From Eledone cirrhosa (taxonomy: Eukaryota): 64,000 bases of DNA. The stretch spans positions 55,800,001 through 55,864,000 of the forward strand of contig OZ024741.1 of NCBI GenBank assembly GCA_964016885.1, in the 5' to 3' direction. Below the pieces are notes generated by a model. That model did not search any database, was not told the origin of the DNA, and was given only the letters and a program-made list of their open reading frames with translations. A program made the position numbers and the translations under genes. This document shows positions 59,269 to 60,838 of this stretch, piece after piece. Each line of letters starts with the position of its first letter. The stretch's first letter is position 1.

Positions 59269-59913
59269 GGTAGTAGTAAATCAGACGATAAATTTGGGAC
59301 GTCCTCACACAACGGCTCTCACAATCTAACTGTTGCTAGCTTAGTGTGACCTACCTGATACTCATCACGGCGGCGGCAGCGGTGGCGGTAGTAATAGTAG
59401 TGGTGGTGGTGGCGGTAGTGGTGGTAGTAGTGGTGGTGGTGGCGGTAGTGGTAGTAGTGGTAGTAGTGGTGGCGGTAGTGGTGGTGGTGGAAGTCGATGT
59501 TGACTTTTAAAAGTAGGATGCAGTGGTGATGCTGCTACTTACGTGCTTTGTGACTACTGGTGTTGTGTTAGTGGTGGTGGTGGTGGTGGTGGTGGTAGTG
59601 GTGGTGGTGTGGGGGGGGGGGGGGATGTTTACTGTAATTTCGGAGAACAGTATATAAAACTTTATTTACATATAAGCGTAATTTATAAAAATCCGAAAAA
59701 TCATAAACAAATTTATTGAAATATTAAAAAAGCTATTGGGCGGGGAGGAACAAACTTAAAAGATACATATATATATATATATATATAGAAGTTATATTTA
59801 ATTTGTTGGGATACAAGCAAATATTTTTATAACTGATATAAAGCACTCAACAAATTATTGGAGTAAAAATACAATATATTAACAAATGGAAACTATATTT
59901 ATAAAACCATATT

Positions 59914-59978
59914 TATTTCATTATACATATTTCAAGGACACCAAAGCAAATTATGGTGCGCTTTCATCAGACAAAATA
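59914..59978 (-). ncRNA. Type I hammerhead ribozyme motif (left arm of palindrome)
   Basis: Exact reverse complement of 60124-60188. Confidence 0.72.
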
Positions 59979-60123
59979 TAATATAGATCAGTTTTATAAA
60001 CAAATATTGACATACCCTTAAAGAATGCGACCATGTCGGTTGGAAGCTCCCGGATAGTCCAACCGACATGGTTGCATTCTTTAAGGGTATGTCAATATTT
60101 GTTTATAAAACTGATCTATATTA

Positions 60124-60188
60124 TATTTTGTCTGATGAAAGCGCACCATAATTTGCTTTGGTGTCCTTGAAATATGTATAATGAAATA
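60124..60188 (+). ncRNA. Type I hammerhead ribozyme motif (right arm of palindrome)
   Basis: TATTTTGT-CTGATGA-AAGcGCACCA...TGGTGTcCTT-GAAA-T-ATGT-ATA-ATGAAATA. Intact core, 8-bp stem I with 2 GU pairs, AUA cleavage triplet. Confidence 0.72.
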
Positions 60189-60838
60189 AATATGGTTTTA
60201 TAAGTTTCCATTTGTTAATATATTGTATATATATATAATATATATATATATTATATATATATATTATATATATATATATATAAGAGGGTGTTAAAGTTTG
60301 CTTGAAGCATTGTGAAATGTGTAAAATACGTGTTTAAGAAAGCCACAACAATGCAGAGGGAAATCTCGAGGTAGGAAGTGAAAGATAGATAGGAAAAACA
60401 GGTGAAAGTGAAAATTGAGAGAGACAAAGATGAAAACAAAACAAAGGTAGAAGGGTTGCCGTAGTAGAGATTTAATCCCAATATTTCGGGCTCACGCCCA
60501 TCAACGGGGGAAAGTTCCAAAAGGGGAGGAACAGGCCAAGCGGAGAAAGTTGTGATGTCGTTAAGACAGGAATGCCGTTATGACGGTATTCCTGTCTTAA
60601 CGACATCACAACTTTCTCCGCTTGGCCTGTTCCCCCCCCCCTCCTTTTGGAACTTTCCCCCGTTGATGGGCGTGAGCCCGAAATATTGGGATTAAATCTC
60701 TACTACGGTAACCCTTCTACCTTTGTTTTGTTTTCATCTTTGTCTCTCTCAATTTTCACTTTCACCTGTTTTTCCTATCTATCTTTCACTTCCTACCTCG
60801 AGATTTCCCTCTGCATTGTTGTGGCTTTCTTAAATACG

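Follow-up and report, generated by a model that had tools for sequence, protein, structure and literature searches.

The 64-kb window, the whole stretch of DNA analysed here, contains the first coding exon of SH3BP5 and, upstream of it, a palindromic insertion spanning 59788-60228 (Table 1). The SH3BP5 call of the preliminary description is borne out by a Pfam SH3BP5 match on a later exon (E=4e-12) and by a public contig that splices 59015 to exon 2 and shows no mismatch over 59015-59183. Between the start codon and the edge of the insertion there are 687 nt, and the palindrome proper is 768 nt away. The palindrome itself is real: 59869-60044 and 60058-60228 are reverse complements that differ by one substitution and one 5-nt deletion, they are separated by 13 nt, and (TA)n lies on both sides (59763-59787 and 60218-60282). 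While the inverted repeat stands as it was first given, the bounds of its left arm do not, since that arm measures 270 nt and exceeds the right arm by an unpaired 81-nt tail. Similarly, the 13-nt "spacer" is not a separate part of the structure but the first 13 nt of the left arm, that is, element sequence q1-13. In this numbering q1 is window position 60057 on the minus strand, which places the predicted hammerhead cut after q136.

Table 1. Features of the palindromic insertion and its surroundings (window coordinates; q, element coordinates).
Feature	Position	Strand	Remarks
SH3BP5 first coding exon	59015..59183	-	ATG at 59101; 5′ limit hidden in a microsatellite
Left (TA)n target tract	59763..59787	.	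Family ends abut TA runs
Long arm, pLTR/leader copy	59788..60057	-	From q1 (60057) to the long 3′ end; 97% identity to the 3′ pLTR of ORF-bearing L102
Tail, leader between the short and long 3′ ends	59788..59868	-	Unpaired; compared with L104, L109 and L116
Minimal type I hammerhead, long arm	59915..59977	-	Predicted cut after 59922
13-nt "spacer", q1-13	60045..60057	-	Long arm only; inside the 5′-truncation peak of the family
Short arm, pLTR copy	60058..60228	+	Covers q14 to about q189 (short 3′ end); private 5-nt deletion
Minimal type I hammerhead, short arm	60125..60187	+	Core at 60132; predicted cut after A60180
Right TA tract	60226..60282	.	Common to the next insertion too
Head-to-head insertion of a second PLE family	60283..60843	.	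39-nt one-sided tail; same TA tract; GIY-YIG match

Structures of this kind are common in the window, where further inverted repeats, several of them beside TA tracts, were found at 27480-27567, 32031-32310, 40595-41325, 46211-46817, 47048-47405 and 52152-52342. The second Penelope-like element (PLE) family, represented at 60283-60843, has copies about 99% identical and includes RT and GIY-YIG with CCHH-type Cys and His (L207, L209, L210); near 60662-60690 it carries a motif that resembles a hammerhead but has an altered core, and a related family (L208) retains this motif. A third inverted repeat, at 61039-63019, has arms of about 720 nt that are 97% alike around a 540-nt middle, which contains a dispersed repeat also present near 46820 and 46970. 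A small palindrome at 45321-45542, of which one arm has a hammerhead core at 45460 while the core of the second arm is broken, is probably an older PLE pair. Minisatellites occupy 57258-58933, within SH3BP5 intron 1 (67-nt unit, 25 copies), and 63115-64000 (69-nt unit, at least 12.8 copies). Beside the doubly hit TA tract, putative CCAAT-, GC- and TATA-like motifs (59736-59748 and 59683-59688) are oriented for the minus-strand SH3BP5 gene.

Each arm of the insertion carries a complete hammerhead core, starting at 60132 on the plus strand and at 59970 on the minus strand, with the conserved core and an NUH triplet; as first proposed, the cleavage triplet is predicted to end at A60180. A motif scan of the 64 kb returned these two cores and the one at 45460, and no others. 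The 7-bp stem I includes two G-U pairs and the 9-bp stem II a C-C mismatch; stem III has 2 bp, which close a loop that is complementary to itself. Rfam at E<=10 listed no hammerhead and gave only hairpin-type chance matches. For the wider family, 203 loci yielded 75 distinct motifs filtered on stem II, for which stem II pairing counts are consequently circular, and 20 of the 75 were hand-picked for stem counts. Among these 20, positions 2-4 of stem I were paired in every motif and position 5 in all but one (19), and two families showed pair swaps; the helix III pairs held in 20, 19 and 19 of 20, and its six bases were self-complementary in 18. This pairing, the swaps and the self-complementarity indicate that the hammerhead fold, as predicted from sequence, is conserved at the family level. 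The first pair of stem II, G10.1-C11.1 in the reference form, is A-U in this family, G-C in 6/20 related motifs and purine-pyrimidine in 20/20; the window copy has this A-U pair and, within stem I, a minority G-U. In folding models the active fold of the monomer lies at -4.0 kcal/mol, 6 above the minimum of -10.0, with a stem I probability of 0.3-0.4 in the context of the arm. A gap of 6 kcal/mol is as expected for dimer-type motifs, and a dimer is predicted to be needed; in a dimer cofold the active fold was not the minimum. The earlier classification as a type I hammerhead of the minimal, dimer-type kind is supported. Several other hammerhead families that share this minimal architecture and the palindromic helix III lie near copies at L009, L019, L024, L045, L075, L125, L163, L194 and others.

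The ribozyme belongs to a large family. A 35-nt piece of it has 948 exact copies in the genome, as compared to 0 for the control, and when the right arm served as the query, 40 of 786 candidates were scored and yielded 56 matches, among which the best full-length copies had 96-97% identity. Upstream of family copies there is a long AT-rich 3′ UTR and then a coding region on the same strand as the ribozyme. A search for RT gave 150 matches, of which 20 were fetched, picked for long open frames or high score, and the terminal repeat (pLTR) was present at 20/20 of these loci, at one of them only in part. In L104 and L109 the order is pLTR, leader, ATG at about q327, ORF, 3′ UTR and pLTR, preceded by a truncated copy in inverted orientation. 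The full unit is about 4.1 kb, and pLTR-to-pLTR distances are 4.1-4.3 kb in L104, L109 and L099. The repeats of one ORF-bearing copy, L102, are 97-98% identical to those in the window. Indeed, both the family and the linked RT/GIY-YIG ORF for which the preliminary description had proposed a genome search were found, and its suggestion of a PLE origin is upheld by ORF-bearing relatives that share the pLTR and have RT and GIY-YIG motifs in their ORFs.

These ORFs, of 743-751 aa, contain RT motifs followed by a C-terminal GIY-YIG-like motif. As for the diagnostic features of the Hydra clade, RWR occurs in 4/5 ORFs (the fifth is 5′-truncated) and DKT in 5/5; the linker carries CxCX5C in 5/5 and CX2-5CxxC in none. 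The nuclease has no CCHH, with a single Cys inside the GIY-YIG motif and CxxC before E in 5/5 ORFs, and a terminal CxH near a conserved N was read off the ORF translations. The unit exceeds the "generally <3 kb" of Hydra elements, a trait that is typical rather than diagnostic. Pfam and PDB searches with the family ORF recognised neither RT nor GIY-YIG. The ORF has 38 homologues, mostly with PF26215, whose one informative named hit makes a cephalopod host probable, and its Atlas neighbours carry GIY-YIG and RVT_1; pairwise BLAST against the RT of the neighbouring family gave E=0.38. It is on the motifs, these homologues and the Atlas neighbours that the putative Hydra-clade assignment rests. 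Assignment of the ORF to Naiad or Nematis was rejected on domain order and linker motif. The ORFs of L097-L102 also contain Asn-rich stretches between thumb and nuclease, recalling the N-rich inserts described in the available text on rotifer PLEs (PMC3846280), and their 3′ UTRs are 1.6-1.9 kb long and of low complexity.

The palindrome is made of two 5′-truncated, head-to-head copies of the pLTR and leader of a Hydra-clade PLE, set inside (TA)n. The window copy lacks the ORF and is likely inert. No empty-site (pre-insertion) allele was seen, and target-site duplications are unreadable within TA tracts.

Family copies end at two sharp sites about 85-90 nt apart, a short end at about q189 and a long end at q277-282. 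TA repeats, less often CA, lie beyond both, and where the end motif was found a TA run of at least 8 nt followed 27/36 short and 38/51 long ends. Where copies are full-length, a few TA-like bases lead from the long end on into the 5′ UTR, and TA-like bases are likewise present at the short end; in such copies (L104, L109, L116) the sequence of the tail continues into the 5′ UTR, with the ATG about 45 nt further on. In the window, the left arm has the long end and the right arm the short end. To examine pairing we took the first 100 listed of the 948 matches, which represent 89 insertions, and scripted 85 of them; the other four are the window and L066 (both short with long), L009 (long with long-like) and L012 (unpaired). 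Head-to-head pairs were present in 47/85 insertions, and 38/85 had no partner in the DNA fetched. Every one of the 44 pairs with two clean ends joined a short end with a long one (p ~1e-13 against free choice). Among the three unclear pairs, two combine a short arm with a decayed long arm and one (L197) is long with long-like. A lenient count that includes the left-out insertions gives 48/50 short with long and no short with short. Similarly, a first set, which takes in the window and L009, gave 20/21, and an RT-anchored set of 13 gave 11 short with long, one long with long and one odd pair. The exceptions are three long with long-like pairs (L009, L197, L110). The neighbouring unrelated PLE family displays the same short-with-long pairing in 8/8 such pairs (20 loci); another listing of that family has 8 short and 1 long partner. 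Our family thus adds a near-strict rule: one short end is joined with one long end.

Partner arms also share sequence variants. In the 44 of 64 pairs with an overlap of at least 50 nt, minority variants shared between partners amount to 4.1/kb, as compared to 0.63 +/- 0.28 when shuffled (2000 permutations, maximum 1.68). With gaps set aside, partners agree at polymorphic sites q29 in 24/26, q20 in 19/20, q86 in 35/35 and q175 in 48/48 pairs. Gene conversion between arms, or two RNAs of one source, could also produce the shared variants. Unshared differences run to 26/kb, and the insertions are therefore young. The 5′ ends of 135 arms are not evenly spread: 44 fall in q-3..9, none in q-16..-4 and 26 further, so that 44 of the 70 arms reaching q9 stop within 13 nt, BLAST-derived 5′ ends being accurate to a few bases. 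A TATA-like stretch, clearest in L104 and overlapping an AATAAA, lies about 22 nt upstream of this peak. The peak likely marks the RNA 5′ end, which would put a start site at about q1-9; alternatively, it may reflect an RT stop or, in view of an AATAAA-like motif 13-22 nt upstream, a poly(A) site.

This evidence suggests that the two target strands were primed in a coupled manner, each from one of two fixed sites in the leader RNA. We put a probability of roughly 0.7 on the whole reading, in which a head-to-head pLTR/leader pair arose when the enzyme cut (TA)n and primed both strands, at two fixed sites, on uncleaved leader RNA. The element enzyme would cut both strands of the tract; priming would use the short site for one strand and the long site for the other, aided by the few TA-like bases at each. 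Both cDNAs would then extend towards the RNA 5′ end, often reaching it at about q1-9, and be joined by microhomology; junction overlaps of 1-6 nt are present in 18/44 pairs. Because of the strict opposition and the shared variants, one RNA used twice is the simplest account, and a single uncleaved leader RNA would more likely have served both strands than two RNAs from one source. To our knowledge PLE RTs have no RNase H, and the template would stay intact. The hammerhead would be the ordinary pLTR ribozyme of the element, copied as a passenger from a template that must be uncut at q136. In vitro, PAc, a Poseidon element of Anolis, has two internal RT start sites, both strands are cut and extended, a dimer is predicted and uncleaved RNA is used, according to the available text of PMC11167929. 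Against twin sites stand the three long with long-like pairs and the insertions without a partner, as well as the findings for PAc in vitro that the strands showed no difference in start site and that starts occur at sites not homologous to the target (PMC11167929). A more tentative proposal, on which we are nearly evenly divided with a slight lean against, is that PLEs use obligate twin internal priming by a protein dimer on one uncleaved RNA, with run-off usual and most insertions dead strong-stop hairpins. If twin priming is true, a single rule would explain why the tail is one-sided, why the 5′ copy is inverted and why hammerheads occur in opposite-strand pairs across PLE clades.

The strongest competitor, which we consider unlikely, is that one long cDNA folds back at an imperfect palindrome at about q7-16 and copies itself, the second arm being cut or stopped at the short site and central deletions blurring the junction. 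Such fold-back would account for the shared variants and for the short-with-long pairing; both arms have nearly the same 5′ point in 8/44 pairs, in six of which both lie in the peak, and the accessible part of PMC3846280 argues for self-priming in rotifer PLEs from junction palindromes. Yet in 28/44 pairs each arm holds sequence absent from its partner and the 5′ end of the short arm extends beyond that of the long arm by more than 10 nt, and 8 pairs have no overlap at all. In L097, L103, L107 and L112, kilobase-long main arms with a short end are joined to truncated long arms. Only one arm lies at the 5′ peak in 15/44 pairs, and therefore symmetric annealing does not explain the peak. Priming of the two strands from two leader sites thus remains the reading we prefer.

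The idea that the palindrome moves as a whole, as a non-autonomous unit of fixed form (MITE-like or a retrozyme), is largely refuted and very improbable. It is small and non-coding, with inverted arms and TA flanks, and several copies are centred near q1-14. However, the junction varies over hundreds of nt, and the same ends flank ORF-bearing copies. A MITE with terminal inverted repeats has equal ends and a fixed interior, whereas the ends here are unequal in 44/44 pairs; retrozymes form tandem arrays, whereas the window copy and 47/85 insertions are head-to-head, with direct pairs only at L121 and L140 among the 85. The retrozyme-type origin offered by the preliminary description is accordingly set aside, the window copy not being a head-to-tail tandem and its parent being an RT and GIY-YIG element of the Hydra clade. 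Its description as a non-coding insertion holds for the window copy, which has no ORF of its own, but not for the palindrome as an element: the centre differs from copy to copy, and the palindrome is therefore a by-product of integration.

Equally improbable in our judgement is that SH3BP5 has co-opted the insertion as a regulatory hairpin or a ribozyme. The CCAAT-/GC-box-like motifs at 59736-59748 are about 40 nt away and the ATG 0.7 kb, and a transcript across the insertion would form long dsRNA. The idea that such dsRNA sequesters the ribozyme is physically right, the modelled hairpin being at about -280 kcal/mol with both ribozymes fully paired, but the RNA itself is hypothetical here. Against co-option, the copy is young, comes from a large family and shows private decay only, and there are about ten other inverted repeats in the window. 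The public run data are assembled contigs, from which RNA starts, ends, cleavage and editing are unreadable, and the 20 runs that are RNA or presumed to be RNA had shares of at most 0.14; none links the exon with the insertion and X24 has no cover at 59634-59763, holes that prove nothing. Summed contig depth over q100-246 relative to q7-100 was about 25-fold in X24 (spliced contig) and about 2- to 8-fold in X21-X23, a kind of depth that cannot rank gene parts. Finally, an assembly or library fold-back artefact is scarcely credible: palindromes between microsatellites are error-prone and no public contig was seen across the locus, but the arms differ by a substitution, a deletion and the 81-nt tail, the ends coincide with the family-wide fixed sites, and independent public contigs join TA runs at the short end, 59869.

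Set against the published record, the locus itself is ordinary, since truncated copies in inverted orientation, tails on one side and pairs of hammerheads on opposite strands have all been published before; it is young, one among hundreds and a new member of the Hydra clade. In the available text, PMC8557442 and PMC3846280 describe 5′-truncated copies in inverted orientation and a tail that is "often" confined to one end, and PMC4209133 describes dual hammerheads on opposite strands, 100-700 bp apart. The significance lies in the family, with near-strict pairing in two unrelated families, variants shared between partners and 5′ ends piled at one place, which give three predictions testable in the existing in vitro system. 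How PLEs come by their tandem and inverted structures is an open question according to PMC8557442 and PMC11167929, as far as those texts were available. Among the accessible sources we found no passage that sets out, for PLEs, a strict pairing of short with long ends or twin priming; such a passage may exist in subscription papers outside the search (Arkhipova 2006; Evgen'ev and Arkhipova 2005). Our findings would also explain a genome dotted with short palindromes, which repeat-finding software might wrongly annotate as MITEs or miRNA precursors.

As far as the accessible portions of the cited papers go, the family agrees with the Hydra clade (Craig et al. 2021, PMC8557442) in RW(K/R), DKT, the CxCX5C linker, the absence of CCHH, CxxC and CxH around the conserved E and N, a C-terminal GIY-YIG-like domain, a hammerhead in the pLTR and (TA)n targets. 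It differs in its unit of about 4.1 kb with a 1.6-1.9 kb 3′ UTR, versus <3 kb, and in its tail of about 85-90 nt, versus the usual 30-40. Hydra-1_Obim, one octopus Hydra family in the supplement of that paper, has a different hammerhead in a by-eye comparison and is noted there as lacking a pLTR. Like the minimal hammerheads of metazoan PLEs in the available text of Cervera and de la Pena (2014, PMC4209133), ours are type I with a long helix II and a tiny palindromic helix III; unlike them, helix II begins with A-U rather than G-C and helix I is 7 bp. Non-LTR retrozymes, as the accessible text has them (bioRxiv 10.64898/2026.07.22.740005), are likewise non-coding, hammerhead-bearing and derived from PLE pLTRs, but form tandem arrays, in contrast to the inverted pair and variable junctions seen here. 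The Penelope elements of Adineta vaga, in the part of PMC3846280 available, share the head-to-head inverted pLTR, the one-sided tail, a palindrome at the pLTR 5′ end and microhomology junctions; self-priming on an antisense template is proposed there, whereas the non-overlapping pairs here fit two primings better. A parallel in mechanism is PAc (Frangieh et al. 2024, PMC11167929), for which the available text gives two internal start sites that delimit the tail and lie downstream of the hammerhead and, in a likeness we infer, cutting and extension of both strands on an uncleaved RNA template. In our family, however, the sites lie in the 5′ UTR rather than the ORF, with short TA-like target homology, and they stand in near-strict opposition on the two sides of the insertion, while PAc in vitro showed no difference between strands.
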